Below are positions 3,971-53,878 of a stretch of DNA of 64,000 nt, piece by piece (positions within the stretch are counted from its first letter, which is position 1; each line of letters opens with the position of its first letter). The notes under the pieces are model-generated. The model was not told the origin of the DNA. It searched no databases and worked only from the letters and a program-made list of their open reading frames with translations. The position numbers and the translations under genes were made by a program. This stretch comes from an uncultured Lachnospiraceae bacterium (GTDB lineage Bacteria > Bacillota > Clostridia > Lachnospirales > Lachnospiraceae), in the NCBI GenBank assembly GCA_947164865.1, contig CAMUYA010000016.1:1603-65602 (forward strand), written 5' to 3'.

Positions 3971-5816
3971 TCACCCCGCTTTCCTCACGATAGTACTGAG
4001 CCTGGGTGTTGAACATATCAGCGTACTCCCCGCCTCTTTCCATAAGCTCGTCGTGTGTTCCGTACTCGATCATCTTTCCGTCCGCGAACATAGCTACGTT
4101 GTCGCAAAATCTGGTAGAGGCAAGCCTGTGGGAAATATAAACCGCACTCTTTGTTCCGACCATCTCGTCGAATCTCTCGTAAAGCGCCTGTTCCGCAAGG
4201 GCATCAAGAGCGGATGTGGGCTCGTCAAGCACAACAATCTTTGCCCCTTTATAAAGGGCTCTTGCAAGAGCCAGCTTTTGTTTCTCTCCGCCTGAAAGAT
4301 CCACACCGTCGTCTTCTACCACATTGGTAAGAGGCGTATCAATACCCTTTTCAAGAGATTTGATCTTATCAAGAAGATCCGCTTCCTCAGCACATTTAAG
4401 CACCTTATCCCTGTCCGTTCTATCCATCTGCTTAAGGGAAATATTCTCTCCAAGAAGAAACGCAAAGATTTCAACATTCTGGAATACCGGTGCAAAAAGC
4501 CTGTAATAGTCCTTTCTGCGGAATCTTCTGATATCCGTTCCGTTAAGCGTAATATACCCCTCTGTCGGATCATAAAGCCTGAGCAGAAGTTTGATCATCG
4601 TGGTCTTTCCCGCCCCGTTAAGTCCTACAACGGCCAGCTTCTCTCCCGGCTTTATCTTTAGATTAAGGCCGGTAAGAGCATCCTTTTCGGCTTTATGGTA
4701 TCTGTAGGATACATTTACGAATTCTATCTCGTATTCATCCGCTTCCGGCACAGGGATCGCATCCTGCTCATCGTCAAATATCTCAAGCTCCATAAAGGAT
4801 CTGAAATCGTCCGTCTCTAAAGAAGCCTTCTTGTAATCTCCGAATCTGTTCAGGAAATTGGTAAGAGCTCCCGAAAAAGCAATAGCCATCGAAAGAAACA
4901 TGGTAAAGTTTCCGACGGAAAGGCTCCTGTTAAAGATCGCCAGATAAAGGGCTCCGTATATGCATGCCTGGATAACGATATAGGTAAGCCTTGCCACTAC
5001 GTTGTATCCAAACCACATATCTTCGTGAAGAGCAATACGCTTATATCTCTTATCGTAGATACCTTTTTGCTTATCAGCAAGAAAAGAGCTGAGACCGTAG
5101 AGACGGATATCCTTGGCGAAATCAAAATCCTGGGTGACTCTTTCCATGTAGTGGGTTTTGCGCCACGTAGTGGAAAGCTTATCCCAGACCTCTTTTTTGT
5201 CTTTTTTTATGATATATCTGTAGTATAAAAACTCGCCGATACTGAGGATGATTATTGCGATGATGAGTCTCCAGTCAAGTACCGTTACCGCAATGAAGGT
5301 CACAACAAGAGTGAATGCGTTCTGCCCAAGCTCACGCATTCTGTTCATCATGCCCTCGACGCCGTTATAATTGCCACCGGTTGCCTCGCTTGCCCTTTCA
5401 GCTATATCCATAACATCAGGCTTTTCAAGCATCTCGAATTTAAGATTAAGTACGCGCTCGATACGCTCGGTTATCATATACATGCGAACGTAGATCAGTC
5501 TGTACCAGAGCTGATTGTTCGAGATCGTATTCCCCAGGGACAAAAGGACTGCTATAGCTCCCGCTATAGCGATGGTTATCAGGAGTTTGTGTATGCTCTC
5601 CTTTTCTCCGAGGCCCGCTGTAATATCATCGATAACAAACTTCCCGAAGATTCCCCAAAAGTACTGGAATACCGACCCGCATACAATGCCGAGCAGGGTC
5701 AGAAAGATCGCCTGCGGGCAGTACTTTGCCATATTTTTAATGATGTATCCGGTATTACTCCATATACCGAATTCTTTGTGCAAAGGATTGTCTTTGCTTT
5801 CTTTATAGTCTGACAT
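3957..5816 (-). CDS. ABC exporter, fused permease + ATPase (first subunit of a pair)
   Basis: GLNGAGKTT, LSGGEKQK, VVLDEPT, ISHR; RBS GGGAGGAG; overlaps the next gene by 14 nt; 619 aa. Confidence 0.93.
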   Translation of the reverse strand: MSDYKESKDNPLHKEFGIWSNTGYIIKNMAKYCPQAIFLTLLGIVCGSVFQYFWGIFGKFVIDDITAGLGEKESIHKLLITIAIAGAIAVLLSLGNTISNNQLWYRLIYVRMYMITERIERVLNLKFEMLEKPDVMDIAERASEATGGNYNGVEGMMNRMRELGQNAFTLVVTFIAVTVLDWRLIIAIIILSIGEFLYYRYIIKKDKKEVWDKLSTTWRKTHYMERVTQDFDFAKDIRLYGLSSFLADKQKGIYDKRYKRIALHEDMWFGYNVVARLTYIVIQACIYGALYLAIFNRSLSVGNFTMFLSMAIAFSGALTNFLNRFGDYKKASLETDDFRSFMELEIFDDEQDAIPVPEADEYEIEFVNVSYRYHKAEKDALTGLNLKIKPGEKLAVVGLNGAGKTTMIKLLLRLYDPTEGYITLNGTDIRRFRRKDYYRLFAPVFQNVEIFAFLLGENISLKQMDRTDRDKVLKCAEEADLLDKIKSLEKGIDTPLTNVVEDDGVDLSGGEKQKLALARALYKGAKIVVLDEPTSALDALAEQALYERFDEMVGTKSAVYISHRLASTRFCDNVAMFADGKMIEYGTHDELMERGGEYADMFNTQAQYYREESGVSENE

Positions 5817-5856
5817 GTAGTGATTACTCCTCCCGTTTTAGATAAGGGCCGAATGC

Positions 5857-5885
5857 ATTATAGCACGACTCACAGTAGAGTTGAA
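5857..5885 (-). promoter_or_regulatory. Putative sigma70 promoter of the ABC pair
   Basis: Minus strand TTCAAC-17 nt-TATAAT with a TGc extension. Confidence 0.45.
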
Positions 5886-6007
5886 CTGTAAATATCTAAT
5901 GTAATTGATGTTTTGGTGGGATAATTCAGCAATTTCTACTTATGGTAGAATTGGGGCCTGTGATCATGGATAATAGCTGAATTATTTATGAAAGGTGTTA
6001 TCGGGTA

Positions 6008-6036
6008 TTGAATCCGGCAATATTCGGTAGTATAAT
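6008..6036 (+). promoter_or_regulatory. Sigma70 promoter of the XRE-Uma2 gene
   Basis: TTGAAT-17 nt-TATAAT. Confidence 0.65.
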
Positions 6037-6084
6037 ATAACTAACGGTAAGATAATAGAGTTTATGATAAAGGGGGTGGCAGTC

Positions 6085-6939
6085 ATGACAATAGAGGAAT
6101 TAAAGAAACTCAAAGAAAAAAAGGGGTATACCTACACACAGATATGTGATCACAGCGGAGTTCCGATAGGTACAATAATCAAAATCTTCTCAGGTCAGAC
6201 ATCAAATCCCAGAAGGTCTACTCTGGATGCAATAGAAAAGATGTTGACTGATCCACAGTACGAGCATCTGGGAAAAAGCTTTTATTACGACGAAAAATCT
6301 AAGCCTACCGTTACATCATATACAAATGTATACGGAGAAAGTGTAGTAAGAGAACCTGTCCCTTTTTACGGCAGTGACATCGGTCCGCATACTGTGGAAG
6401 AATATAATAATCTTCCACAGGGAGTGCGGGTTGAACTGATAGACGGCGAATTCTACGATATGTCTTCGCCCACGCCCCTACACCAGGAGATAGTATATCA
6501 ATTTGCCAAACAGGTGGATCGGTTCATCGACAGTAATAAAGGCAAATGCAAAGTGATCCTTGGCCCGGTGGATGTGCAGCTCGACCTTGATGACAAAACG
6601 ATGCTGGTGCCGGATGTCATGATACTGTGTGATAGAAGCAAACTTCGAGACAGAGTCTATGGTGCTCCGGATTTTGTGCTGGAGGTTCTGTCTCCCTCGA
6701 CTCAAAAAAAGGATTTTGAGAAGAAATGCCCCAAGTACAGGAATGCCGGTGTACAGGAATACTGGATGATCGATTCCTTGAAAAAGATGCTTATCAAGTA
6801 TGACTTTACAGGGGAGGACTATGCACCTTACGTACCGCAGATAATGCCGCTTCAAGGTACCGAACCGATAAACATGTATCATGGGAAATGTATCATCGAT
6901 CTATCGGAGTTTAACAGGATCATCTGCGATTACGAATAA
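6085..6939 (+). CDS. XRE-family HTH fused to a Uma2/DUF820 (PD-(D/E)XK) nuclease-like domain
   Basis: N-terminal HTH (YTQICDHSGVPIGTIIKIFSG); C-terminal ELIDGE..MSSP...HQ, PDV, APDFVLEVLSPST, GVQEYWMID. Start moved from 6064 to ATG 6085, which follows RBS AAGGGGGTG. Confidence 0.85.
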   Translation: MTIEELKKLKEKKGYTYTQICDHSGVPIGTIIKIFSGQTSNPRRSTLDAIEKMLTDPQYEHLGKSFYYDEKSKPTVTSYTNVYGESVVREPVPFYGSDIGPHTVEEYNNLPQGVRVELIDGEFYDMSSPTPLHQEIVYQFAKQVDRFIDSNKGKCKVILGPVDVQLDLDDKTMLVPDVMILCDRSKLRDRVYGAPDFVLEVLSPSTQKKDFEKKCPKYRNAGVQEYWMIDSLKKMLIKYDFTGEDYAPYVPQIMPLQGTEPINMYHGKCIIDLSEFNRIICDYE

Positions 6940-6955
6940 GCCTGACTGTTAATGA

Positions 6956-6990
6956 AAACGCCCTCTCCCATTTGAAAGGAGAAGGCGTTT
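6956..6990. terminator. Likely bidirectional intrinsic terminator between convergent genes
   Basis: AAACGCC-c-TCTCC-loop-GGAGA-a-GGCGTTT with A/T flanks, between the stops at 6939 and 7046. Confidence 0.65.
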
Positions 6991-7045
6991 AATAGGTTAA
7001 AACAATATAACAGATCGAGATCAAACAAGCTTTATTGAATCAATA

Positions 7046-10000
7046 TCAAATAAACCTTATTGAAACAAGATCAAAGCTACTGCCGGGAAGAAAGATGAAC
7101 TTCACATCACCTTTTCCGGTGTAGCCGCTCACTTCAAATACCTGCTTCTCGGGGGCGTTACCACTTCCGGCAGACGGCTGCTTTTCCCCGGCGCCGGCCT
7201 TAAATTCAATTATATCTCTCTTTGAATCGGTTCCGTTATCAAAGAGCACATGGATGGTATTTACCGGAATATGCGATACTCCGGTTATCTCAAGCCTGCC
7301 GGCGGCTTTATCTCCAAAGTCCATATCCTTGAATTCAACGGTCACGTTGTTTCCGATGTTATCTATCCGGTCTGCTTTCTTTTCAAAGCTGTCGCCGTAT
7401 ACCGCATCACATTCGCCCGCATTCAAAAGCTCATAAGCCTTTTCCAGCTTCTTAAATGAAAATCCCGCAAACTGTGCCTTATCGTAGGTCACGAAATAAA
7501 GAGAGCTTACTCCCTTAACGCGGTGCCCCAGCTTATATGTCTCGCTCTGATATTCATTCCAGAGCGCAGGCTTTTCATAGACAACATCAGCCAGCATCTC
7601 ACTTCCTTTTGCATCCGGGAGGCCTTCCCATATCTGCATCGGGAACTTTCCGCCCGAAAGCACAAAGAGAGGAATCGTGATCTCGTCACTTCCGTAGCTT
7701 CCGAAGTCGATATCATCATATCCGAATACAGTCCTGTCGCCCCTTTGGGTGGCGATACCGTGCTCGTTGCCGTTACCCAGCTCGCTGTCGGAATAAGTAT
7801 AGAGACCACCTGCAATAAACCCGTAAGGATCAAGCAGTGCCTGCCCGATTCCCTCTGCGGTAAAGCCAAGCTCCGAAATGACCTTCACTGATTCACATCC
7901 GCATTTGGTCATGCAGCGGATCTTGAAGTATCCGTCTCCCAGAGCCTTGACTGTGGCACTAAACCCTTCCGTTTCAACGATCTTTGCTATATTACTGTCG
8001 ATGCCGGCTTCATCCACAGCTTTCCATATGAGTTCGTCGGGATCTACCGCGCCTGCTGCCGCTTCGGGCAGTATCCGGGCATTGACCTTTATCTTGACAT
8101 AATCAGGAGTGAGCACTCTTTCCTCGTCACACGAGAGTGCTATTTTCCTTACCCTCACGCCGTTTATACGTCTTTCCTTTACTTCGCGGCTACCGGCTTT
8201 TGTTTCGCTGCGGTCTTTTAAATCACTGCCGGTATCTTCCCCATCCTTCTTTTCTGAAAATCTCTCGGGAAGCAGTGACATACCCTCGATATCTTTTTTT
8301 TCAGATACTTCAAGGGTTACTTCCGCGCCCTCAAGCCCTTCTGCCGAGGCGGTTACCTTTATTTTGCCTGTTTCATTTCCCACGGCCGCACATATCAGCA
8401 TCTTTCCGGAAAACAGCCTCTTAAAGCTTCCCTTGTATTCTGCATCATCCGCGGAATCGCCGTTATCAAGGCCCGCAAGATATCCTGCTCCCTCCACCTT
8501 CACATTCACAAGATCGGTCGCATTTTCAACCGGATATCCGTCCTTATCCGTGGCGTATACCTCGATAAATGCCATATCTCCTATGCCTGCGGTGAGCTTT
8601 CTTTCCGGCTCATATACATTAAGCACAAGGTGCGCGCTGTCTCCGAAGGAATGGCGCGTCTGCCTTGCTATCTCTTTTCCGCTCTCATCATAGGCAACTG
8701 CTGTGATCTCGCCTGCTCTGTACTGCGTGATGTAATCCCCGGTGAGTACCTTGCCACTAACGTGATCTATCGCCTTCCTTCCGAGGCTTTCCCCGTTCAC
8801 AAAGAGCTCAACCACAGGGGCATTCGATGCAACCCTCACATCGACAGTCTGCCCTTCGTTGAAATCCCAGTATGGAAATACGTGCACGAAGGGATCTTTC
8901 TTTGCATCTGTCCATGCGGACTTATAGATATAGAATGTGTCCTTGGGAAATCCCGCGGTGTCTATCTGCCCGAAATATGAATTGCGGGTGTGATATGGAG
9001 TGGGCTCTCCGATATAATCAAATCCCGACCACAGGAACTGTCCCATTGAAAAATCGTGATCGCGCTCCGCTATTATGCTGTATTCCGCGTTGGGTGCGCC
9101 CCAGCTTGTGGTGGAATTGCCAAGGCTCGAGCACTGCAGATCATCATCCGCAAGCGTGCTCCTCTTATAGGGGAAGCGGTAAATCCCTCTGCTCTGAACG
9201 GTGGAGCTTGTCTCGCTTCCGAAGATATACCAGTCGGGATGCTCCCTGTGATGCTCATCATAAAGCTTCTCGCCGTAGTTATATCCGGCATATTTTAGGA
9301 TATCCGCACATTTCTGTGCGCCCTCCCATGCCATATAATTGGAGCCTATGCTTATTATGGCATTCCCGAGGGGATCGTTTTCTTTTGCCTCTTTCTGAAG
9401 GCAGCGGGTTATATCCTGGCCGTGAGCATCCTTGTGGGTGTCGTATATCTCGTTCCCGATGCTCCAGATAAATATGCTCGGATGATTGCGGTCGCGCCTT
9501 ATCCAGCTGCGCACATCCCTCTCCTGCCACTCCTTGAAAAAGCGGGCGTAGTCGTATTCTGTCTTGCTGCCCTCCCACATATCGAAGGATTCGTCGCAGA
9601 CGAAAAATCCCATTTCATCCGTAAGCTCAAGCAGACCAACTGCGGGCATATTGTGCGAGGTCCTTATAGCATTTACTCCCATGGTGCGAAGTATCTGCAG
9701 CTTTCTTCTCATGGCTGCCTTGTTAAATGCAGCGCCCAAAGCGCCCAGATCGTGGTGCTCGCACACGCCGTTTATCTTGGTATGGACTCCGTTTACAAAA
9801 AAGCCCTTATCCGTATCAAAAGTAAAGCTTCTGAAACCGAAAAGCCTCTCGTCGCCCTCCCCTTTGGGGGTGCCCGGGGCTAATACGATCTTCTTTTTTT
9901 CTTCCTCTGAGTCCTCTGAAGCAGGCTTTACAAGGGAGCTCTCAGTATCTTCATAATCCTCCTCGGGATCAAAGACAGAGAGCCTGCAGTCATAGAGCTT

Positions 10001-10768
10001 GGGATTCTCCGGCGACCATAGCTCCGGCTTTTCGATCTTTTCCGTAAACTCGATCCTTGTTACGCCGCTTGGGTATTCCTGCGCGGTAACTGCCCCTATA
10101 AGCGCGCTGTGGCTCTTTCCGAGCATGGGAAACCATAGAGTAGCCTTAAGCCTTGGACTCAGCTTTCCCACTCCGTTCTTATCATAGTCACCATTCCATG
10201 AGCAGTCGGCTTTGCCGTTAACGAGCTCGGCACTGACCTTTACTTCCCACTCGCCTGTAAGGTCGGTATCCGCAGTTATCTTTTCCCCTGCGGATACCAC
10301 AGGCTTAGCGGAAATATACATGCTGTCCGTTACTATATGGGTGCTTCTGTGCTCGATAAACCATACATCGCGGAATATTCCCGCTCCGCTGTACCACCTG
10401 CTGTTGGGCGAAAGGAAGCTGACCTTCACGATGATCTCGTTATCGCCTTCCTTTAAGAGCTCTGTTATATCAAAGAAAAAGCTGGAATACCCGTATTTCC
10501 ACTCACCTGCCGCCTTACCGTTAACGTAAAGAGCGGTATCCATATAGACGCCTTCGAAATATATCTCGTAGCGCCTCCCCGGCTTTTTCTTTAAGTCAAA
10601 TCTTTTCCTGTAAAATCCTGTTGAATCCTCATACAGATTCCCGGTCTGATAAATCAGCCAGTCATGCGGGAGATTCACTCTCTCAAAACGGGCTTCGTCC
10701 GGGCCCGGAATATCCGAGCCCGGCCTTAGCTTTGTAAACTCCCAGCCGTCATTAAATAGTGTTTTCAT
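7046..10768 (-). CDS. GH2 beta-galactosidase family protein with extra C-terminal carbohydrate-binding-like domains (1240 aa)
   Basis: VNLPHDW, FEGVY, GIFRDVW, GVCEHHDLGALGAA, NAIRTSHN, WSIGNEI, FGSET, FLWSGFDYIGEPTPY. Start MKTLFNDGWEF at 10768, 10 nt after the giant-gene stop; the track start at 10840 overlaps that gene. Confidence 0.92.
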   Translation of the reverse strand: MKTLFNDGWEFTKLRPGSDIPGPDEARFERVNLPHDWLIYQTGNLYEDSTGFYRKRFDLKKKPGRRYEIYFEGVYMDTALYVNGKAAGEWKYGYSSFFFDITELLKEGDNEIIVKVSFLSPNSRWYSGAGIFRDVWFIEHRSTHIVTDSMYISAKPVVSAGEKITADTDLTGEWEVKVSAELVNGKADCSWNGDYDKNGVGKLSPRLKATLWFPMLGKSHSALIGAVTAQEYPSGVTRIEFTEKIEKPELWSPENPKLYDCRLSVFDPEEDYEDTESSLVKPASEDSEEEKKKIVLAPGTPKGEGDERLFGFRSFTFDTDKGFFVNGVHTKINGVCEHHDLGALGAAFNKAAMRRKLQILRTMGVNAIRTSHNMPAVGLLELTDEMGFFVCDESFDMWEGSKTEYDYARFFKEWQERDVRSWIRRDRNHPSIFIWSIGNEIYDTHKDAHGQDITRCLQKEAKENDPLGNAIISIGSNYMAWEGAQKCADILKYAGYNYGEKLYDEHHREHPDWYIFGSETSSTVQSRGIYRFPYKRSTLADDDLQCSSLGNSTTSWGAPNAEYSIIAERDHDFSMGQFLWSGFDYIGEPTPYHTRNSYFGQIDTAGFPKDTFYIYKSAWTDAKKDPFVHVFPYWDFNEGQTVDVRVASNAPVVELFVNGESLGRKAIDHVSGKVLTGDYITQYRAGEITAVAYDESGKEIARQTRHSFGDSAHLVLNVYEPERKLTAGIGDMAFIEVYATDKDGYPVENATDLVNVKVEGAGYLAGLDNGDSADDAEYKGSFKRLFSGKMLICAAVGNETGKIKVTASAEGLEGAEVTLEVSEKKDIEGMSLLPERFSEKKDGEDTGSDLKDRSETKAGSREVKERRINGVRVRKIALSCDEERVLTPDYVKIKVNARILPEAAAGAVDPDELIWKAVDEAGIDSNIAKIVETEGFSATVKALGDGYFKIRCMTKCGCESVKVISELGFTAEGIGQALLDPYGFIAGGLYTYSDSELGNGNEHGIATQRGDRTVFGYDDIDFGSYGSDEITIPLFVLSGGKFPMQIWEGLPDAKGSEMLADVVYEKPALWNEYQSETYKLGHRVKGVSSLYFVTYDKAQFAGFSFKKLEKAYELLNAGECDAVYGDSFEKKADRIDNIGNNVTVEFKDMDFGDKAAGRLEITGVSHIPVNTIHVLFDNGTDSKRDIIEFKAGAGEKQPSAGSGNAPEKQVFEVSGYTGKGDVKFIFLPGSSFDLVSIRFI

Positions 10769-10778
10769 AGTTACCTGA

Positions 10779-13700
10779 TCATTCCCTGAGTTTCTTAAAT
10801 ACTGATACTGCTGTCTCGTTGTCGGTCTTTCCGATGGCATCCTCTAAGCCTAATACGGCAAGCGTACACTTTGCAAGGATCCTCGGCTCCTCGAAAGGAT
10901 TGTAATCACTTGCCGAGAAGAGAATAGCGTGAACCATATTTAGCCTTATAAAGTCCACAAGCTCCTCATCGCGCTCAAATCCCTGCGCGTTGCGGATAAG
11001 GTCAAGCTGCCTGCTGCCCACAACGATATTGCCGTTCACATCCTTCTTGGTCTTGTGCTTAGATACATAGCTTTCCGGCTTGTCATGATAGCGGAACTTT
11101 TCCTCCACCTGCTCCCTTGCAGCGTAGATGTCCTTGACCGTTGCGTTTCCGGCACCCTGATAATAATCTCTCACGGTGTTCTTATCGGACATGCAGTGCC
11201 AGAAATAATTAGCAAGATCAACAACCTTATCGATGATCTTGGAGGCTCCCTCCACACCGGCATATTCGGCAACCTTGCCTGCCACGGTTCCTGCAGCCTT
11301 GGATATCTTCCGGGACTCGATATTCTTTGTCATATCGGTACCGCCGCTGACAAGAGCCTTATTGTTGTTCAGCACTTCGGTAAGAGATACCTTCTTTTTC
11401 TGCGAAACATTGAGGTTCTCTATCTTTGACTTATCCTCTGCGCTCTTTTTTGCGCCCTCATCCTTTGCATCACCAAGCTTTTTGATGTTGATGGAGGCCT
11501 CTACAATATCCTTGAAATCTCCGATCATGGAGATAACGGGGTTAACATAGGTCTTTGCCCAGTCGAGAAGGTCACCTGTTTCTTCAGCGGCCTTGAGCAG
11601 CTTTGTGACATTATTCTTCACAAAGTCGGGAAGAAGGTCGTCAACCTTCTGTTCGAAGGCTTCAGCTTTATCGGTATACCACTCTCCGATGGCCTTGGTG
11701 CTGACAAAGCCCTTCATGTATTTCTCGATATATCCGTCGATCTTCTCAAGCTGCTCATCGTTTTCCGCAAAGGCATCTATGGCAGCCTTGGCATCTGCCG
11801 CTCCCTTTATCGCCTTACCGGAGAACCTGAGCACCATATCAACATACTTATAACCTGTGATCTCGTGGTTGACAATCTCGGTAGCTTCCACGCCTTTAAG
11901 GGTTTCTGACAGCCCGTCGGAGAGTTCCTTTTCCTCTTCCTTATCGTCCAGTACATCCTTGTACGCGCCTATTACGCTCTTGATGTTTTTACCGAAGGTC
12001 TTAAGCACCTCCTTCTGTTCCTGGAAAGAACCGGCCAGATCGTATATGCCTCTGAGGTCGTGGTTCTTTCTCTTGAAGGCTTCTTCTTTTTCCTTCTTGA
12101 TCCTTGCCTCAAACTGCTCCTGAGTCTCGCCGTCCTTGGGCTTTTCCTCCTCGACCTCCATATCCTCTACAAGGTCGTCTTCCTTCTCCTTATCCTTCTC
12201 AAGCATCTCATTTGCCTGATCGTGAAGGAAGTTTGCGGTCTTCTGGGATACGATATAATCGGCAAATCCCACCGCGGTATCGAAGAACCCGAGATTATCC
12301 TTGATCTCGTCATAGCCCTCCCTTGCGAGGAATCTCATAAATCTGGAGCCCGTATGATGCAGGTTTACCCTGAGGAACGAATTGTCCATCTTGAACTCCC
12401 CGTTCTTCTGCTTATCCCCGAGGGACTCATATACTGCCTGATCACCCGATACCATCTTGCTTTCGGAAGTGGTTCTGGTAACGAACTGAAGAGCTCTCTC
12501 AAAAAGCTTCCAGTCAATAACCGTCTTCCTGTCGGTGACAAGGAGCTGGTTGTTTACATAGAGATTTTTATTTGCCCAGTTGATATCAACGTTTTCGAAC
12601 TTCATATCATCGTTGACTTCTCTGGAAAGAAGACTCTCAAAGGCAGCCATGCAGGCTCCTTCGCCAAGCTCTGTGTCATTTCCGTTCGCCAGATATTCAT
12701 CTATCAGAGCATCTCTGTCAACGGGGTTAACGAAATCGCGCTCAGCCAGTCCGAATACATTCTTGTACAGGTTCTTCTGCGATACGTCAAGGATGTCTCT
12801 GTTCTCGAGAGCCTTGATAAACAGCTTCTTCTCGTTGGCATTAAGCTTATAATAACCGGTGAGCAGATCATCCGCATTGGACTGTCCGTTATTGAGCTTA
12901 TCCTCCTCAAACGCCGAGATGATCATGTTCTCAAAGGTCTCGACAGAGGAAGCTCCCGTCTCCATAAGAGATTTATGCTGACTGTAGAACCTTGCGGAAT
13001 TGGTCTTTTTATCCTTTTTCTCTTCAGCGTCCTGCCTGAGCAGGTTTCTGGACTGCCTTACGGCAAACTTCTTGATCCTCTCTCTGTCGATCTCTGCAAG
13101 GAAATCCATCGCTGCATCGAGAAGATCCCAGTCAACTACCCTGATCCTGTTTATTGAGGATTCAACAAAATCCGATTCCCTGAGCTCTCCTTCGGGAAGC
13201 TCCACATCGTCCCTTACCTGGAAGCTGAGAAGCGATGCCAGAGCTTTCTGTACGAATTCGGGATCCGCTGCGTCTCTGAGAGCTTCAAGCCTTCCCTCTT
13301 CACTCAGAAGCTTTTCGTACATCTTGAATCTTCCGGCAGAATCCACATGGGGAACCTTCTTGGTCTTTTCATCCTTTCCCGCGCTGGAAAAGTCAAGTAT
13401 GGTACGATTCTGAAGGATGTAGATAAGCAGGCCTCTCTGGCTGCTGCTCATCTTGTCGAATCTTGCCTTAACATTCTCGACCTTGACCCGGTTATGCAGA
13501 AGCTTTGATACCTTTGTACCCACTCTTCCTACAAGGCCCTGTTTGTCCTCTCTCTCAATATCCGTTTGGGAGTAATCCCCCAGGAACCTGTAGAGATCAC
13601 TCTGCGACTTGACATCAGCCTTATGTAGTGTCTTTGACTGCTGCCCGATATTGACAGACTCTGTGGCTTTGTTCTTTCTGTATCTGTCAGCCACCTTCAT

Positions 13701-16700
13701 GTTCTCTTCGGCGGCATTCATCCGGTCAAAGTCCTTGGGTCTTAACAGGTTCTTCTTCTTTTCGACCTTCTCAACAAACTGAAGTGCAGTCTTAAAGAGC
13801 TCCTCGTCTCCGGTGAGACGGAAGTTTTTGTATCTGAGGGTGACTGCGCGGATACTGCGGGCATAATCCACCTGCAGATCACCCGGCTTTCCGGCGATGT
13901 AATCGAGGATCTGCTTTCTCTCGGTCTTTATCACATCCGCCTTCATTCCGTATACTGCTCTCTGCGTTCCTCTCTCTTCGGGTTTGGATGCGTAAAGAGC
14001 TATCGCAAATATCTTTCTCTGCTCGGAATCGAGCTCGTTGTACTTCTCAACCAGCCACTTGTCGCTGGTGATACCTATCATGTGCTCAAAGTCCTTCCTG
14101 GTCTTTACTCCGGGATAGATATTCTGTTCTTCAAAATCCTTGTTGCTTACGGAATCGCCCTTTACAAGCAGAGCTTCTATGTTAAAGGAGGTGGATATCC
14201 TTTCCTTTACTTCCTCCGCAAAGGCGGCAGCGTCAAGCTCTCCCTCGCTGGCGGTGATGATGCTTCCGGTAAAGTACTCCCTGAGACCTCCCACATAGCG
14301 CGACCTTGAAACCACGTCAAGATCCTTGGTGTAAGCATCCTCTGCAAGCACTTTATCGATGACGCCGTATGCTTTTTCCGCACAGCTCAGGTACTTTTTC
14401 TGTGCATCGATCATACCCGCGAAAGCCTTCTGATCTCCGTTCAAGGATATGATATATGCTCTCATCTTCTCGCAGATATCTCTGTGAGCCAGAATAAGTC
14501 CGCTGTCGTTAAAGCTCATCTTTTCGAGCTCCGAGAGCTTCACATAGAAGTTCTTAAACTTGGATGTGAGCTTTTTAAGATTATCTCCCGTTCCGGTCTT
14601 CTCTTGGAATTTAGCCGCATAGACGAGGTAAAGGTCCATTGCTTCCTCGGGGATTTTGGCTTCGCCCGCCGCGTATTTGTAAATTCCCTTCAGTCTTTCG
14701 GCCTCGATCTTTACATCATTGTCTTCTCCCAGCACCCAGTCCGCAGCTCTGTCAGCCTTGGTAAGGAATGAGCTGTTAAGCCTTACATATTCATCAAGGC
14801 AGTCCGCAAGGATATCGGGATAAGTGATGTCCCCCTCTTTCTTGAACATCTGCTTTGCTTCCGCGAAGCGGCTCTTATCCTTTTCTTCTCCCTTGGATCC
14901 GACCTTGACCTCACCCTTTTTGCTCTGCGCGGCATAGATGAGCGATGTCTTAATCTGTCCCAGTTCCTTAAGGGTATCAAGCTTACCCGCAAAGAGCTTT
15001 TCGTTATACAGAGTGCGTCCTTCCGACTTCTTGACGGCAACAGCTGTCTGCGCATCCTGCATCTGCTTGATACGCTCCTTGGCCTCCGCTATGCTCTCGG
15101 GCCTGAATGAAACATCTTCCTCAAGCGCAGTTTTCTTGGAGCTCAGGAACTCTTCAATGGTCTTGTTCAGATTCTTTTTAAACTTCTTCGGATCTCCCAT
15201 AAGGGCAGCATCCCTGATGTAATTCCTGAAATCCTCAAGAGAGCTCTGAAGCTTTCTCTGTTGCTCAAAAGTCATGGAGCTGATGGTCTTTCTGACATCG
15301 ATATCAGCCTCAAATCCCTGTGAAAGCACTTCTCCAAGTTCCTCACTCACGCTGTCGGTGTGGGTGAGCACGTACTTTAAGAATGTCTCCTGCGCCAGGG
15401 AGTCATTTGCTTTGAAATTATCTATCTGGTTTTTGTAGTATTCCTCGAGGGTTCCCTGAAGGTTTGCAGCCTGGATAGTATCGGAGTTTTCGAGCAGATG
15501 ATCGTTCATCTGCTTAATGAGACCGTTTGCCTTCCTTTTGCCTCTGTCAAAGGCATCCGCCACACTGTCAAGCTTTGCGGTGAGTCCGAAAGTTACAACA
15601 TTTCCGATCTTGAACTTTAAGCTTCTTCCTTCTTTCTTGAGCTTATTTCTCTCCTTTACTTCCTCCTCATTGATCTTATCAAACCAGGGGTTTTCTTCCT
15701 CTGCTTTGAAATAATATGTAAGGCTCTTTTGGGCGTCTCCGGTTCCCTGCTCGAGGTTTGAAAGAATGGATTTGGTGTTCTGTTTGCTCTGGGTCAGATA
15801 GAGCCCTGTAAATTCCTCAAGCTTTCTGCTCCAGTACTTGACCGCCATTTCGGCATCATTTTCATTCAGTACCTTTTCGTACTCCTTATATTCAGCCTTA
15901 TCCTCATTAAGGTAATTCTTAAGATTATCCTCTGTAAAGAATTCTCCGACAAAGGAATACTTCTGATCCTTGATGGCCATTCCAAGTGGCGCAAATCTGC
16001 TATAGAGCTTTTCTATGCATTCGATCGCCACGGTCTCGGCACTGTCCAGAATATCAATGGTAAGCTCGGGGATACCCATGATGGTGTCAACAATAGGCTC
16101 CAGCAAACCATCCTTGTATTCTGCCAGCAGCTTTCTTCTCTCTTTATAGAGCATGGATGTCTCAAAGAGCTCGTCACTCTGCTTTCCGTCATTGACGCTT
16201 ATAAGGCTGTGGAGCATACTTCCAAGCTGATCCAGATTCTGCACGCCAAAGGCTTCCTGATTAAGTCTCTGCTCCTTATAGGACAGCTGAGCTTCATCTC
16301 CCGCACTGAACTTGGATATCTCGTCGGAGATTGCCCTGATCTCTTCATCAAGTTTCTTTGATTGAGTATTATTGTCGTAGATCTTTTTATTTGCTGCGCT
16401 GATGAGGTCATTGCATTCCATTATTACGCGGTCTGCCTCCCTGACTTCATCATGAGCTTTGTACTCTTTCTGCCTACATTCTTTAAGCTGTTCGTCCAGT
16501 TCCTTTAGTTTGGCATCATGCTCTTCTTTTTTGGCTTTCCTCTCCGATTTTTTTAAATTTTTTATTTTATCCCTGTATTGTGATAATTCCGCCTCTTTGC
16601 TTTCCCTCAGCTTTGTTGCTTCCTGGTGTTTCTTCCTTAGTTCATCGATGCTGCCCTCAGCTATTCTCAGCTTTTTCTTGGCATCGGCAGTATCCTTATC

Positions 16701-19700
16701 AAAATTGTCATTCTCTTTCTGAAGGGCATTTTTCCTGTCCTCCAGATCTTTTATCTTCCCCTGCTTTTTGGGAAGCTCTGCCAGAAGACCTTTCTCGTTC
16801 TGGTAATGCGTATCTCTCATTTTGAGCACAGTCCTCGCCAGCTTATTTCGAAGCTGCGGCTGAAGCTCCGGAGGATAATCCTTTATCATATCCTCGAGGA
16901 CTTGTGTCCTGTCATATGCATAGTTCGCGATACTGAAGAGATTATCCCTGTATTCCTCCTCCGGTTTACTGCCGTATGTAAAGAAATACTCCTGGAACTC
17001 CCCACCATGCCCCATAAGTATGTCCTGCACGCCGAACATACACATTTCGTATATGAAGTCTGTTACCTTGATCTGATCTTTTTCGACTTTCTTTTTCTTC
17101 TTCTTTTCGATAGCCTCGAGCTCATCTTCCGCATCAGGCTCTTTCACTCCCATAAAAGCTTCCCTGATGTCGTCAAGGAACTGTTCTTCACCGCCCTTGG
17201 CTGCAAGCTTATCATCCGTCACCACATTGGCGTTTCCCTTAACCTTTACGGTAAAGAATTTGAATTTCTTTTTGTCACCCTGAATAGCCTGCGCAAGATC
17301 CATCAAGCTTCCGTCGGGATTGTCTGAACTGAGGGCGCTCTTAAGCCATTTCCTCACCTGCATTACAGCCTCGGGGCCCAGCTCCTCAAGCCTTTTCCAT
17401 ACCTCCGAGGCGCGGTTTGCATGCGCGGCGCGCTTTCTCATCCAGTCCTTATCCCATCCGAGAAATGACTGTGCAAGAGTCTTTTCCCTGTCGGGCATAT
17501 CCTCATAGCGGTAACGTATCTTTCCGTCACGCATTTCCTTATCCGTGCCGATGGTGACAAGAAGTTTCTTTCTTACAAGCTTATTCTGCTGAGTCTGTTT
17601 GTTATACTCCGCCCTGAACACATTCTTTATATCGTCTTTAGAGGCTCCGCTTCTCATTATCTCAAGAAGGGCACGCTTCTGCACCTCGGGCGTCACCTCA
17701 TATTTTATGAGCATTTTCTTTATTTCTTCGTCTGCTCCTCCGGCGGTAATGCTCTCATGGAGATATATCATCATGTTTTCGATCTGGTCGAACCCAAGAT
17801 CATCCAATCCGTCGATTCCCTTTACATCCTTCATGAAAGGAAATCTCTCCCTGATAACGGGACTCTTAAACAGGATCACGTTCAGGTTGTCACTCAGGAA
17901 TTTTCTGATCCCCCGGTCGGGGATCACTGCCGAGAACTTGTCTCCGTTAATGAGCTGCTTTATCATTTCCCCAAAGGTGAGAGTATCCACCCGGGGTTCT
18001 TTAACTGCAGCCTTCCTCTTTCCGCAGTACTCATAACAGGATATCTTCTCCCCGCCTTCATCCTCATCAAAATACACCTTTGTGGATCTTTCAACAACAG
18101 CGGCAAAGCCTTGGATCATTACGTCATCGGACTCTCTTTTCAGGCTACCGACCTTGTCTGTAAGGAACTTGGAGCATGCCTTGTACAGCTTTTTCCAGCC
18201 CTGTTCCGACAGAGTCTTTCCTTCCAGCGCCTTTTCCATTCCTGCAAGATAGAGCGTGACGACCTCCAGCTCCCGTTCCATCAATTCCTGCTGATTTCCG
18301 GCTTCATCCCACTTGTCCTTCCTTGAAAGGAGATACTTTTCAACGGCAGGTCTCATCACTTCGGAGAAAGGTCCGCTTATCCTGTTCTTATATGCCTCAT
18401 CATAAGCCTTCTGCTTTTGGGCATATTTTCTGTTGGTGAGCGCCAGTCCGTTAAGGTATCTTTCGGCATAGTCCTTGATCACTCTGTTACCCGCAAAAAG
18501 TGCCTTATCTCCGATAAAATTACGCAGATCCTTATAAATATCGTCGGCGGCGAATCTGCCGAATCTTTCCACGACCATACGGCGCAGGAGTCTGTCTGTT
18601 CCCTGCGCACGTCTTACCATATTTGTCAGATCCTCATCCTTGAGTCCCAGTGCCTCTGTCTCTTCATCGGGGCCAAGCAGCTTAAGGAGAGCCTTGCTCT
18701 TGGCCAGTACGACGCCTCTGCCTCCAAGATCCGCCTTCTGCAGGATGGACCATCTGCCCGCTGCCTTGTAAAAAGGTGCTATATCCCCCTTCTTGATCGC
18801 CATGGTACTCTTTTTGAGAGTATTTTCCACGCTCTTACCCACCAAAAGGTTATTTCCGAACACGGCCTTATGCATATCCACACAGTATTTCTTAACCCAT
18901 GGTACTCCCGCATCCAGAAATGATATGAGCATCTCCCGCGACTGCTTGTTCTTTTCCTGCCCACGGATACTGTTTATCATTCCCTTTACAGCCATCCTGT
19001 CAAGAGCCTTAAGGTTTTCTTTTACGATCCCGTTAAGCTCTGAAAGCTTGGCTCTGTACTGTTCATCCGTATACAGATCATGTTCCTTATCGGTGAAAAG
19101 CTCGTTGTTGATAAAGGCACTGAATTCCGTAAGCTTCCAGTCGCTATCGATCTCCTTTTCCTCTCCGTCATCGCCTGCCCATTTCCCGCTGATAACCATC
19201 TGCCTTCTGGCATCGATGGCGTTCAGTCTTCTCTGCTTTTCTGCCTGGCGGGCTTCTCTTATTTCGTCTGCCTTGACATTATCTCTGGCGATATTCTGCT
19301 GTGCGGTATGCTTTGCTTTTTCCTTTACGTGACCGGTCACCTTTTCCCATGTGAAATACTTTCCGTAACCCTTGATATTACGGATCTCTTTCATCTCTTT
19401 ATCAAGCTTTGCACGAAGCTTCTTTATCTCGTTTGCATAGCCGTTGCGGGTTCTCTCGCTGATACCCTCATCCCGGGAATGATCGATATACATTCTGATC
19501 AGACGATAGTATTTACGCATCTTGTTCATGGAAATATCTATCGCATATTTATCGTCATCGACCATATAAGCCTTAATGTATTCTTCCCTCGCCTCCGCAT
19601 CAAGCTCGATATACTTTTTCTCAAGCTTAAGCAGCTCACCGGACTTAAGGATCCCGTGACCCATCATGTTGTCGAAGTCCACTTCGGCCATCTTGCGGTT

Positions 19701-20000
19701 TCTTATATCCTTGCTTCTGGCGACGCTCTTTTTTCTGTCCTTTGCACTGTATTTTGAATTCTTTTTTTCAAGTGCCCTGGCTTTCCTGTCATCAATAGTC
19801 TGATCCTCTTCGCTTTTATTGATCTTCCGGAACTCGGAAAAGAGTGCCTCAACTGTCCAGCTTTTGTTCAGGGCTATATCTTTATTCTCATAGAACTTGT
19901 ATGTGTTAACCTTTTCGGCCCCGATCATAAGGCCCCGGTCGCCCTCCTCAATATGAGTTTCCTTAACCTTTATTTTGTTGAGCTCGTCAAAATCTGCCAT
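10779..20000 (-). CDS. Giant 3073-aa Lys/Glu-rich, largely helical protein of unknown function; no signal peptide or anchor
   Basis: Uninterrupted 9.2 kb ORF with RBS GAGG. Long heptad coiled coil near aa 1070-1230, three internal repeats near aa 1985-2505. I recognise no catalytic family. Confidence 0.9.
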   Translation of the reverse strand: MADFDELNKIKVKETHIEEGDRGLMIGAEKVNTYKFYENKDIALNKSWTVEALFSEFRKINKSEEDQTIDDRKARALEKKNSKYSAKDRKKSVARSKDIRNRKMAEVDFDNMMGHGILKSGELLKLEKKYIELDAEAREEYIKAYMVDDDKYAIDISMNKMRKYYRLIRMYIDHSRDEGISERTRNGYANEIKKLRAKLDKEMKEIRNIKGYGKYFTWEKVTGHVKEKAKHTAQQNIARDNVKADEIREARQAEKQRRLNAIDARRQMVISGKWAGDDGEEKEIDSDWKLTEFSAFINNELFTDKEHDLYTDEQYRAKLSELNGIVKENLKALDRMAVKGMINSIRGQEKNKQSREMLISFLDAGVPWVKKYCVDMHKAVFGNNLLVGKSVENTLKKSTMAIKKGDIAPFYKAAGRWSILQKADLGGRGVVLAKSKALLKLLGPDEETEALGLKDEDLTNMVRRAQGTDRLLRRMVVERFGRFAADDIYKDLRNFIGDKALFAGNRVIKDYAERYLNGLALTNRKYAQKQKAYDEAYKNRISGPFSEVMRPAVEKYLLSRKDKWDEAGNQQELMERELEVVTLYLAGMEKALEGKTLSEQGWKKLYKACSKFLTDKVGSLKRESDDVMIQGFAAVVERSTKVYFDEDEGGEKISCYEYCGKRKAAVKEPRVDTLTFGEMIKQLINGDKFSAVIPDRGIRKFLSDNLNVILFKSPVIRERFPFMKDVKGIDGLDDLGFDQIENMMIYLHESITAGGADEEIKKMLIKYEVTPEVQKRALLEIMRSGASKDDIKNVFRAEYNKQTQQNKLVRKKLLVTIGTDKEMRDGKIRYRYEDMPDREKTLAQSFLGWDKDWMRKRAAHANRASEVWKRLEELGPEAVMQVRKWLKSALSSDNPDGSLMDLAQAIQGDKKKFKFFTVKVKGNANVVTDDKLAAKGGEEQFLDDIREAFMGVKEPDAEDELEAIEKKKKKKVEKDQIKVTDFIYEMCMFGVQDILMGHGGEFQEYFFTYGSKPEEEYRDNLFSIANYAYDRTQVLEDMIKDYPPELQPQLRNKLARTVLKMRDTHYQNEKGLLAELPKKQGKIKDLEDRKNALQKENDNFDKDTADAKKKLRIAEGSIDELRKKHQEATKLRESKEAELSQYRDKIKNLKKSERKAKKEEHDAKLKELDEQLKECRQKEYKAHDEVREADRVIMECNDLISAANKKIYDNNTQSKKLDEEIRAISDEISKFSAGDEAQLSYKEQRLNQEAFGVQNLDQLGSMLHSLISVNDGKQSDELFETSMLYKERRKLLAEYKDGLLEPIVDTIMGIPELTIDILDSAETVAIECIEKLYSRFAPLGMAIKDQKYSFVGEFFTEDNLKNYLNEDKAEYKEYEKVLNENDAEMAVKYWSRKLEEFTGLYLTQSKQNTKSILSNLEQGTGDAQKSLTYYFKAEEENPWFDKINEEEVKERNKLKKEGRSLKFKIGNVVTFGLTAKLDSVADAFDRGKRKANGLIKQMNDHLLENSDTIQAANLQGTLEEYYKNQIDNFKANDSLAQETFLKYVLTHTDSVSEELGEVLSQGFEADIDVRKTISSMTFEQQRKLQSSLEDFRNYIRDAALMGDPKKFKKNLNKTIEEFLSSKKTALEEDVSFRPESIAEAKERIKQMQDAQTAVAVKKSEGRTLYNEKLFAGKLDTLKELGQIKTSLIYAAQSKKGEVKVGSKGEEKDKSRFAEAKQMFKKEGDITYPDILADCLDEYVRLNSSFLTKADRAADWVLGEDNDVKIEAERLKGIYKYAAGEAKIPEEAMDLYLVYAAKFQEKTGTGDNLKKLTSKFKNFYVKLSELEKMSFNDSGLILAHRDICEKMRAYIISLNGDQKAFAGMIDAQKKYLSCAEKAYGVIDKVLAEDAYTKDLDVVSRSRYVGGLREYFTGSIITASEGELDAAAFAEEVKERISTSFNIEALLVKGDSVSNKDFEEQNIYPGVKTRKDFEHMIGITSDKWLVEKYNELDSEQRKIFAIALYASKPEERGTQRAVYGMKADVIKTERKQILDYIAGKPGDLQVDYARSIRAVTLRYKNFRLTGDEELFKTALQFVEKVEKKKNLLRPKDFDRMNAAEENMKVADRYRKNKATESVNIGQQSKTLHKADVKSQSDLYRFLGDYSQTDIEREDKQGLVGRVGTKVSKLLHNRVKVENVKARFDKMSSSQRGLLIYILQNRTILDFSSAGKDEKTKKVPHVDSAGRFKMYEKLLSEEGRLEALRDAADPEFVQKALASLLSFQVRDDVELPEGELRESDFVESSINRIRVVDWDLLDAAMDFLAEIDRERIKKFAVRQSRNLLRQDAEEKKDKKTNSARFYSQHKSLMETGASSVETFENMIISAFEEDKLNNGQSNADDLLTGYYKLNANEKKLFIKALENRDILDVSQKNLYKNVFGLAERDFVNPVDRDALIDEYLANGNDTELGEGACMAAFESLLSREVNDDMKFENVDINWANKNLYVNNQLLVTDRKTVIDWKLFERALQFVTRTTSESKMVSGDQAVYESLGDKQKNGEFKMDNSFLRVNLHHTGSRFMRFLAREGYDEIKDNLGFFDTAVGFADYIVSQKTANFLHDQANEMLEKDKEKEDDLVEDMEVEEEKPKDGETQEQFEARIKKEKEEAFKRKNHDLRGIYDLAGSFQEQKEVLKTFGKNIKSVIGAYKDVLDDKEEEKELSDGLSETLKGVEATEIVNHEITGYKYVDMVLRFSGKAIKGAADAKAAIDAFAENDEQLEKIDGYIEKYMKGFVSTKAIGEWYTDKAEAFEQKVDDLLPDFVKNNVTKLLKAAEETGDLLDWAKTYVNPVISMIGDFKDIVEASINIKKLGDAKDEGAKKSAEDKSKIENLNVSQKKKVSLTEVLNNNKALVSGGTDMTKNIESRKISKAAGTVAGKVAEYAGVEGASKIIDKVVDLANYFWHCMSDKNTVRDYYQGAGNATVKDIYAAREQVEEKFRYHDKPESYVSKHKTKKDVNGNIVVGSRQLDLIRNAQGFERDEELVDFIRLNMVHAILFSASDYNPFEEPRILAKCTLAVLGLEDAIGKTDNETAVSVFKKLRE

Positions 20001-20025: not shown

Positions 20026-20051
20026 CACCGGGCAAAAAATGCTGCCCGGTG
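20026..20051 (-). other. Intra-operon stem-loop between the GNAT gene and the giant gene
   Basis: CACCGGGCA-8 nt-TGCCCGGTG, perfect 9-bp GC-rich stem. Confidence 0.55.
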
Positions 20052-20061
20052 GCTGTATAGT

Positions 20062-20895
20062 TTACTGTGCCATCATCTCACCGAATTCATCCAGCTCCTC
20101 GACAGACCAGCCGTTCCAGGTTGCAATACATACCGTCTGTCCCTCGCCCTTATCTCCAAAGAAACCGTCCGCCATTCCGGCTGCCTCGGGTGTCACGGCT
20201 GAAAACCAGATATCCGCATCCGGATACAGATCATCTGCAACCTTGCAAGCATGACCAAGCAGTTCTCCCACCACGATCGCATTCCTTGCCTGTGTGAAAA
20301 GGAACGAAAGCTCAAGCTCCTTTTTACCGTGTTTCCTGAAAAACACCGCTCCGCTTACCTTTCCGTCACTTACGGCAGCGAGGCACATATTCTTTTCAAG
20401 AAGAGGATCCTCAATGTCGACAAATCCTTCGAAGCCTTCCTCCGATGCCGCCCTGATAAAGGCTGTCCGTTGCTTTGCATCAAGCGAAAAGAATTCCTTC
20501 ACACCCGGGCTTGCCTTTTTCAAGGTCTTCCAGCGACTGTTCTTTTTTCTGGCATCCGCGGTGATTGTAAATATTTCCTTGTTCTCCCTCACCGTAAAAT
20601 TCGGCTGTGCCTCAAAAAACTCCGCAAGATCCTCACTTTCATCCGCAAGGAAGGATGCCTGCACCGGAACAAATCCTTCCGAACGGGCGATAATGCTCAA
20701 AGCGTTCTGGAGCAGCATGCTTCCTATACCCTTCCGTCTCTCGCTTTCTTTCACAAAAAGGTATGTGATATTGACCCCTTCAGACAGTTCAAGGCAGAGC
20801 TCAGCGATGAGCCCTGCCTTTCCGTTTCTTACTCCGAGTCTTATTTCACCTTTTTCTTCCGAAACACTGAGTTTAACTACTTCTGGTCTCTCCAT
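20062..20895 (-). CDS. Tandem GNAT-fold protein (N-terminal domain keeps the acetyl-CoA motif, C-terminal domain degenerate)
   Basis: ITYLFVKESERRKGIGSMLL is GNAT motif A (R-x-x-G-x-G); 277 aa; resembles 53879-54733. Confidence 0.75.
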   Translation of the reverse strand: MERPEVVKLSVSEEKGEIRLGVRNGKAGLIAELCLELSEGVNITYLFVKESERRKGIGSMLLQNALSIIARSEGFVPVQASFLADESEDLAEFFEAQPNFTVRENKEIFTITADARKKNSRWKTLKKASPGVKEFFSLDAKQRTAFIRAASEEGFEGFVDIEDPLLEKNMCLAAVSDGKVSGAVFFRKHGKKELELSFLFTQARNAIVVGELLGHACKVADDLYPDADIWFSAVTPEAAGMADGFFGDKGEGQTVCIATWNGWSVEELDEFGEMMAQ

Positions 20896-53877: not shown

Positions 53878-53878
53878 G

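Follow-up and report, generated by a model that had tools for sequence, protein, structure and literature searches.

The locus

The stretch of DNA considered here, hereafter the window, is a chromosomal stretch of 64,000 nucleotides (nt) from contig C16 of an uncultured Lachnospiraceae bacterium, a Firmicute whose genome (our G000) comprises 2.94 Mb with a G+C content of 47%. Nearly all genes of the window lie on the minus strand, with the housekeeping genes def, fmt, priA and carB among the neighbors. Two genes concern us, GNAT1 and GNAT2, which specify proteins of 277 and 284 amino acids (aa) with two GNAT (Gcn5-related N-acetyltransferase) domains in tandem. Both open reading frames (ORFs) are intact (Table 1). 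GNAT1 lies immediately upstream of the ORF for a 3073-aa orphan protein, the ‘giant’, from which it is separated by 61 nt; GNAT2 lies immediately downstream, by 58 nt, of the ORF for a 528-aa protein with an Ntox11 toxin domain. A first-pass annotation of the window had singled out the two genes as paralogous partners, perhaps dedicated ones, of these large, signal-less, effector-like proteins, and the positions, similar lengths and gene order that it gave are as we find them. What such GNATs might do for such neighbors is the subject of this analysis.

The hairpin that separates GNAT1 from its large neighbor may act as a partial terminator or as a stabilizer; the ribosome-binding site of the giant gene, GAGGA, follows it. 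Two further ORFs overlap these genes as listed. The MatE ORF, which begins with TTG, shares 92 nt with GNAT2. A close relative has an orthologue of 437 aa, so the true start is probably some 140 nt further downstream, leaving a short gap after GNAT2. The last 62 nt of the giant gene fall within the ORF for a GH2 glycosidase, the real start of which is probably an internal codon. A genome of the same genus, G151, is too diverged for an empty-site comparison: its EF-G paralogue is 61% identical and synteny is lost.

Table 1. Positions of the tandem-GNAT genes, their partners and associated features. Positions refer to the window unless a contig (C) or locus (L) is named; pI, isoelectric point; eCIS, extracellular contractile injection system; 7TM, seven-transmembrane
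Feature	Position	Strand	Remarks
GNAT1, 277-aa tandem-GNAT protein	20062-20895	-	N-domain motif A RRKGIG; degenerate GNAT C-domain; pI 4.85
Giant, 3073-aa K/E-rich orphan	10779-20000	-	Candidate eCIS cargo and GNAT1 partner; polar N-terminus
Hairpin, 10 bp	20026-20051	-	G+C-rich, weak T tail; within the GNAT1-giant gap
GNAT2, 284-aa tandem-GNAT protein	53879-54733	-	Motif A RRKGYG; pI 4.57; in the Ntox11-accompanying clade
528-aa Ntox11 protein	54792-56378	-	Candidate eCIS cargo and GNAT2 partner; Ntox11 at residues 229-468
99-aa STAS-domain protein	56446-56745	-	Head of the Ntox11/GNAT2 gene string; 38% identity to the STAS gene of the eCIS operon
212-aa protein	56747-57385	-	Conserved 5' of the STAS gene in close relatives; no Pfam match or paralogue
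MatE ORF	52513-53970	-	Start probably misplaced (see text)
1264-aa GH2 glycosidase ORF	7046-10840	-	Start probably misplaced (see text)
160-aa single-domain GNAT	58677-59159	+	Outside the tandem family
eCIS operon, structural genes	C13, about 18.4-42.6 kb		Pvc16_N tail terminator, DUF4280 (PAAR-like), Phage_sheath_1, T4_gp19 tube, GPW_gp25, Phage_base_V spike, two Baseplate_J, Tail_P2_I
eCIS operon, accessory genes	C13		STAS protein, ABC-type ATPase, HATPase_c_2 protein, 787-aa AAA ATPase
787-aa AAA ATPase	C13:18378-20741		Ends the eCIS operon
Three ORFs of 1420, 1243 and 1276 aa	C13:42658-54573 (L069 6659-18573)	-	Consecutive; directly upstream of the Pvc16_N gene; no Pfam match
STAS copies	C13:23127-23426, C11:70371-70676, C8:97133-97435, L058 75-416, L014 699-998		
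Loci of the 7TM/STAS-adjacent GNAT clade	L015 5935-6849, L050 15105-15950, L049 9732-10583, L064 18947-19795, L051 10517-12064		7TM proteins of 340-390 aa, some GGDEF-linked
Four consecutive family-like genes	L014 (G263 C101) 3842-8233		276, 278, 279 and 281 aa; between large K/E-rich ORFs

Fold and acetyl-CoA motif

AlphaFold2 models of the two proteins are of high quality (predicted local distance difference test, pLDDT, 95.0 and predicted TM-score, pTM, 0.84 for GNAT1; pLDDT 92.9 and pTM 0.84 for GNAT2). For both, the PDB entries that Foldseek ranks highest are tandem GNATs of solved structure—2wpw, MAB_4324, MshD, 5kf1 and VipF—with expectation values (E) of 1e-10 to 1e-11, TM-scores of 0.4–0.63, 5kf1 being the highest, and identities of 10–16%. 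The description of the proteins as tandem GNATs is thus confirmed by their predicted structures. The modeled fold begins at about residue 5 in GNAT1 and at residue 2 in GNAT2, so that neither protein carries a polar N-terminal extension.

The two halves are not alike. The Pfam family Acetyltransf_1 (PF00583) matches the N-terminal domain only, with 27.6 bits for GNAT1 and 54.1 bits for GNAT2 against a cut-off of 20.7. Motif A, the loop that holds the pyrophosphate of acetyl-CoA (R/Q-x-x-G-x-G/A), is likewise present in the N-domain, as RRKGIG at residues 53–58 of GNAT1 and RRKGYG at residues 68–73 of GNAT2, and absent from the C-terminal domain. The first-pass annotation had quoted both versions correctly. 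Among 144 representatives of the family described below, 119 retain the motif (R53 in 88%, G56 in 86% and G/A58 in 94%).

One old family

Compared directly by BLASTP, GNAT1 and GNAT2 resemble one another in the region of motif A only (35% identity over 55 aa); hhalign aligns 74 columns of their shallow profiles, and word-based searches return four to five close clusters of homologues for each. That there is no paralogy beyond motif A, as the BLASTP and hhalign results would have it, was overturned by an exhaustive profile search and by homologues that bridge the two. Searched with HMMER at E up to 0.001, the GNAT1 profile gathers 233 clusters at 50% identity. Nearly all of them are 260–300 aa long, and the match takes in both halves, running from around residue 40 to around residue 260. 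GNAT2 matches 78 of the 150 best of these clusters, often over its full length. One bridging homologue, a 310-aa protein of genome G181, aligns with the whole of GNAT2 (E 7e-14) and with residues 43–250 of GNAT1 (E 9e-7). A hidden Markov model (HMM) built from GNAT1-seeded hits alone, with no GNAT2 relatives, gives GNAT2 103 bits (E 2e-30) over residues 1–273 and GNAT1 257 bits.

Because a model made solely from relatives of GNAT1 matches GNAT2 over its full length, the two can be assigned to one family, and by their sequences they are old, diverged members of it, not recent duplicates. Their paralogy, as first asserted, therefore holds in the sense of common family membership; their identity is 16.9% over 242 HMM-guided columns, and they are not each other's closest relatives, a GNAT1 search of the source genome placing another GNAT above GNAT2. 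The likeness of their C-termini that had been remarked upon proves to be a family trait, the region G-[DE]-K ... A-T/x-W. The family is a specific, two-domain one, narrower than the GNAT superfamily at large: the window's own ordinary, single-domain GNAT of 160 aa, 4 kb from GNAT2, gives no match to the family HMM.

Nor is this ‘the same rare partner twice’, as the annotation supposed. The source genome has about ten copies, GNAT1 and GNAT2 among them, distributed over contigs C3, C5, C11 (three), C13, C16 (two) and C20 (two). Full-length members occur in 14 of 401 genomes chosen to represent each genus of the taxonomic family, usually in several copies each, copy numbers being minimum values as at most six candidates were scored per genome. 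In a class-wide sample, only 3 of 399 genomes have the family. Its members are acidic, with a median pI of 4.87 versus 5.54 for proteins of similar size in the source genome.

Some copies are irregular. Several high-scoring copies in genome G376 (C36:110358-111188, C34:76749-77564 and C20:276-1094) each contain one in-frame stop codon, as do some copies, in other genomes, of the AAA ATPase discussed below; those of G376 could be pseudogenes, sequencing errors or instances of recoding. In genome G263, four similar genes stand in a row between large K/E-rich ORFs (Table 1), two of them without motif A and barely matching the family HMM. These two are probably degenerate, non-catalytic members.

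Large neighbors

Proximity to a large gene is characteristic of the family. At 23 loci from 13 genomes, with ORFs called by a greedy longest-ORF heuristic, 33 of 37 family copies (89%) lie next to an ORF of 500 aa or more that runs in the same direction, versus 28% of control genes (Fisher p 7e-14), although copies that share a locus are not independent. ORFs of at least 1000 aa adjoin 35% of the copies and 2% of the background (p 2e-11). The neighborhoods are thus far from random, and the earlier idea, that large, signal-less, effector-like proteins have a GNAT-type partner of their own, finds support both here and in the family relationships. Elsewhere in the source genome, family copies adjoin ORFs of 2057, 1029, 729 and 633–687 aa, and of the three ORFs in the whole of that genome that exceed 2000 aa, two adjoin family members.

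Most of the large partners have no Pfam match, and the rest have domains of the effector type. Five partners, from four genera, have Ntox11, as does a 2413-aa protein at its C-terminus; an ABC1/APH-type kinase domain occurs in partners of 1792 and 2057 aa; and a PI3/4-kinase-like domain, a calpain-type protease and a weak ART match account for others. DUF4157 (PF13699) was found neither in the giant, nor in the Ntox11 protein, nor in 28 other partners.

The giant has no match in Pfam, among PDB sequences or in PHROG, and no similarity to the Ntox11 protein. Its N-terminus, MADFDELNKIKVKET, is polar, and a basic patch occupies residues 79–103. The pairing itself is conserved: on metagenome contig L001, an orthologue of GNAT1 (66% identity) directly precedes a 2151-aa orthologue of the giant (71% identity). 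In the 528-aa protein, Ntox11 (PF15521) is the sole Pfam match (E 3.6e-45; 155 bits, where the cut-off is 25), and here too the N-terminus is polar and is followed by a basic patch, at residues 53–77. Polar residues make up 60% of the first 20 aa of the giant and 70% of those of the Ntox11 protein. Ntox11 has been tied to PVC (Photorhabdus virulence cassette) delivery on genomic grounds (PMC3482391).

The partners at large share these tendencies. As descriptive figures, the polar fraction of the first 20 residues is 0.61 versus 0.45 in the background; the start M-[ADG]-x?-[FY]-[DENQ] (e.g. MADFDEL, MAQFENY, MDDFQVK) is found in 9 of 35 partners versus 13 of 1329 control proteins, with D, A and G enriched at position 2; and a K/R-rich patch lies within the first 220 aa of 54% of partners versus 10% (p 8e-10). 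BLAST found no N-terminal domain common to all partners; the enrichment is one of composition and position only.

GNATs and partners also appear to have kept company over time. A maximum-likelihood tree of 38 members unites the five GNATs that adjoin Ntox11 proteins, from four genera and with GNAT2 among them, in a single clade (support 99/97), and GNATs beside other homologous types of partner pair in the tree as well, with support of 95–100. Such tracking of partner type by GNAT clade is the signature, read from sequences, of cognate pairs.

An injection system elsewhere in the genome

The context that explains these pairs was absent from the first-pass annotation: an extracellular contractile injection system (eCIS), encoded on another contig, that co-occurs with the family across genomes. 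The operon, on contig C13 (loci L067–L069), is complete and resembles those of PVC and of the antifeeding prophage, Afp (Table 1). It ends with the gene for a 787-aa AAA ATPase, and orthologues of about 790 aa recur at three of the cargo loci. Sporulation or coat formation, the Type VII secretion system and flagellar export had been entertained as the context for this ATPase and for signal-less proteins, and were dropped, the ATPase lying at the end of a canonical eCIS operon.

Across genomes, the association is close. Pvc16_N is present in 36 of the 401 genomes, comprising 13 of the 14 that have the GNAT family and 23 of the 387 that do not (p 3e-14); the one family-positive genome that lacks it is 68% complete, and Pvc16_N and the GNATs also occur together in a genome from a different family of the order. 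The association with the ATPase is closer still. Full-length orthologues of the 787-aa protein (59–81% identity) occur in all 14 family-positive genomes and in only 1 of the other 387 (p 6e-25), and this lone exception has a borderline match to the family. The other eCIS-positive genomes have only a paralogue, some 30–40% identical, that matches the C-terminal half. A member of the family lies immediately upstream of the ATPase gene in at least five genomes (G164, G168, G169, G181 and G191), and at least eight genomes have members on the same contig as the eCIS operon, no more than about 40 kb from it. That there is a single, eCIS-linked tandem-GNAT family we regard as highly probable, and it is apparently undescribed.

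Several other genes of these loci deserve mention. Downstream on C13 are a second AAA paralogue, of 740 aa, and large ORFs of 987, 649 and 760 aa. The three long ORFs upstream of the Pvc16_N gene could be structural, fiber- or tape-measure-like proteins, or further cargo. Genes for STAS proteins of about 99 aa, of the anti-anti-sigma type, recur in the eCIS operon and in several cargo cassettes, with 27–49% identity to the copy in the window, which hints at a partner-switching layer of regulation common to machine and cargo.

Probable partners of injected cargo

Known eCIS cargo carries polar N-terminal signals of 20–50 aa and depends for loading on an AAA ATPase; cargo of the Afp18 type is giant, with a polar N-terminal signal that conforms to no consensus (bioRxiv 10.1101/2023.11.13.566157), nor does the literature offer a consensus packing signal against which the termini reported here could be judged. 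The giant and the Ntox11 protein are candidate eCIS cargo. We think it probable that the tandem GNATs are cognate partners, themselves probably acetyl-CoA-using, of these and the other large, signal-less cargo proteins they adjoin. This overall estimate is a compromise between layers. That each GNAT is the cognate partner of the large protein beside it we consider very likely; that it modifies or chaperones the cargo for loading, as opposed to conferring immunity or being injected too, is the reading we favor, though tentatively and at somewhat less than even odds. Family membership, the predicted fold, adjacency, co-variation and co-occurrence are matters of observation; the physical interaction, the catalysis and its substrate, and the role in loading are inferred.

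The reaction might proceed as follows. In the producer cell, the acidic GNAT would bind its own cargo, plausibly by way of the basic region that follows the polar N-terminal packing signal. With acetyl- or acyl-CoA held by motif A of its N-domain, it would modify the cargo, or keep the cargo competent for loading, or both, and would then pass it to the 787-aa AAA ATPase. An adaptor or modifier that acts ahead of ATPase loading commends itself because one partner family serves many unrelated catalytic domains; because the family tracks the type of ATPase; because the GNATs are acidic and their cargo has an N-proximal basic patch; because the CoA motif is largely conserved; and because gene order is variable. 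A bolder version, which we offer as a speculation and think unlikely, is that in this eCIS lineage the GNAT issues a post-translational license by which cargo is selected. The acetyl or acyl mark would be placed on the N-terminus of the cargo, where many partners begin with M-A/G/D-x-F-D/E, or on lysines in its N-proximal basic patch, and the lineage-specific N-terminal domain of the 787-aa ATPase would read either the mark or the GNAT–cargo complex. In this way, proteins as long as 3000 aa would be brought into the tube. The license would amount to an address label written by an enzyme.

Several observations sit awkwardly with this reading. About 17% of the family representatives, and the two tandem copies of G263, lack motif A, so catalysis is not universal. 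The order of the genes varies, with the GNAT upstream or downstream of its partner, and the hairpin that separates GNAT1 from the giant gene may limit read-through. The giant has no detectable homology to the other partners, and its status as cargo, like that of the Ntox11 protein, reflects an association at the level of the family, with the eCIS operon on another contig. The N-terminal patterns of the partners are compositional and were defined in part after the data had been seen. One clade of GNATs (support 100/98) adjoins 7TM membrane proteins or STAS genes instead of large effectors, and may have a role other than that of the clades paired with cargo. Finally, the eCIS is present without the GNAT family in 23 genomes, and co-occurrence with the ATPase could reflect common descent of one eCIS lineage rather than a direct functional hand-over.

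The serious rival to a loading role is immunity, in which the tandem GNAT guards the producer until its toxin is packed, either by binding the toxin or by acetylating the toxin or the toxin's product. GNAT2 and most GNATs of the Ntox11 clade occupy the classic position for this, immediately downstream of the toxin gene; the clades co-vary with the toxin domain of the partner; and the family is multi-copy and polymorphic in the manner of toxin–immunity arrays. As a rule, however, an immunity family is matched to a single toxin fold, and this one family partners Ntox11, kinases, a protease and unknown folds. GNAT1 and several others, moreover, lie upstream of their partners, and the partners' domains look as if directed at eukaryotes (calpain, PI3/4-kinase-like), against which self-protection may be needless. 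The strict link to one type of ATPase, and the frequency with which the genes adjoin, suit loading machinery better, and we judge immunity to be unlikely.

A weaker rival, improbable in our view, makes the GNATs effectors in their own right, delivered along with the partner and possibly riding on it, that acetylate targets in the recipient cell as VipF does. One-to-one pairing and co-variation with very different partners are unexpected of an independent effector, and the GNATs lack the polar N-terminal extension. Their genes do sit in cargo cassettes, the acetyl-CoA motif is conserved, and VipF is among the best structural matches of both models, but that resemblance is one that tandem GNATs have in general (TM-score 0.38–0.50, 12–14% identity). 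That the GNATs are ordinary small-molecule acetyltransferases that chance to adjoin large genes is scarcely credible: GNATs are abundant, GNAT1 and GNAT2 are only 17% identical, and sugar and thiol acetyltransferases (5kf1, MshD) give them their best TM-scores, but the adjacency statistics, the congruence of clades with partner types, the near-perfect coincidence with the eCIS ATPase and the rarity of the family in the class all speak against it.

Significance

How eCIS choose and load their cargo, giant toxins especially, is a live question, and these systems are being engineered for protein delivery. Cargo systems of eCIS are known already; what appears new here is a partner family not hitherto described in the literature searched, together with the subtype of ATPase to which it is linked. 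A cargo-specific tandem GNAT that co-occurs strictly with one type of loading ATPase would add a new component, enzymatic or chaperone-like, to these machines, and points to a step in the handling of cargo that is absent from the literature we searched. The association also furnishes a simple rule by which cargo remote from the operon can be sought in genomes. In the source genome alone, at least eight ‘orphan’ large proteins, the giant included, become candidate effectors, and both Ntox11, a structurally uncharacterized domain, and the eukaryote-like kinase and protease domains acquire a context for delivery in commensal Clostridia.

Comparison with known systems

The payloads of PVC and of the Serratia antifeeding prophage are the nearest parallel. 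Their operons are phage-tail-like, with Pvc16_N, sheath, tube, baseplate and AAA ATPase; the toxins are very large and signal-less (Afp18 has 2366 aa), with polar N-terminal packing signals; and loading is through the Pvc15/Afp15 AAA ATPases. Cargo genes often lie beside the operon in those systems, whereas here the cassettes are scattered over at least five contigs. The host, too, is different, a Gram-positive organism of the Lachnospiraceae type from gut or rumen, and the ATPase is set apart by an N-terminal region of about 250 aa. In contrast to the eCIS-associated toxins (EATs) of the DUF4157 type, the cargo here lacks that marker. In the literature searched, we found no published description of a GNAT partner for the cargo of PVC, Afp or any other eCIS.

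In genetic habit, the GNATs recall the class I chaperones of Type III secretion systems and the Eag/DUF1795 and DUF4123 proteins of Type VI systems, which are likewise small, acidic, encoded beside their own effector and specific for it. Such chaperones and adaptors are thought to bind an N-proximal region of the effector and to pass it to the ATPase or spike of the machine. Their fold is unrelated, and the GNATs differ in keeping an acetyl-CoA-binding motif, which implies catalysis.

Modification of a toxin before export is the business of HlyC and CyaC, the toxin-activating acyltransferases (TAAT, PF02794), which have a GNAT-like fold and are encoded beside the large toxin on which they act. 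The first-pass annotation invoked HlyC as an analogy, and the analogy is sound as to function only: at E up to 1, the Pfam matches of GNAT1 and GNAT2 do not include PF02794. TAATs are single-domain enzymes that use acyl-ACP (acyl carrier protein), and their toxins have RTX repeats, unlike the partners here, for the giant has no Pfam match and the 528-aa protein matches Ntox11 only.

In architecture, the closest parallels are the solved tandem GNATs: MshD (1ozp), CBG of the clavulanate pathway (2wpw), MAB_4324 (7q3a), the Clostridium acetobutylicum glucosamine N-acetyltransferase (5kf1) and Legionella VipF (6wqb). Each has two GNAT folds in one chain and one canonical CoA site, in genomic contexts different from those described here. 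In MshD the active domain is the C-terminal one, whereas in GNAT1 and GNAT2 the CoA motif is N-terminal. As a concept, N-myristoyltransferase is also comparable: there too the N-terminal half carries the CoA motif, so that in these tandem GNATs the C-terminal half could hold a peptide substrate.

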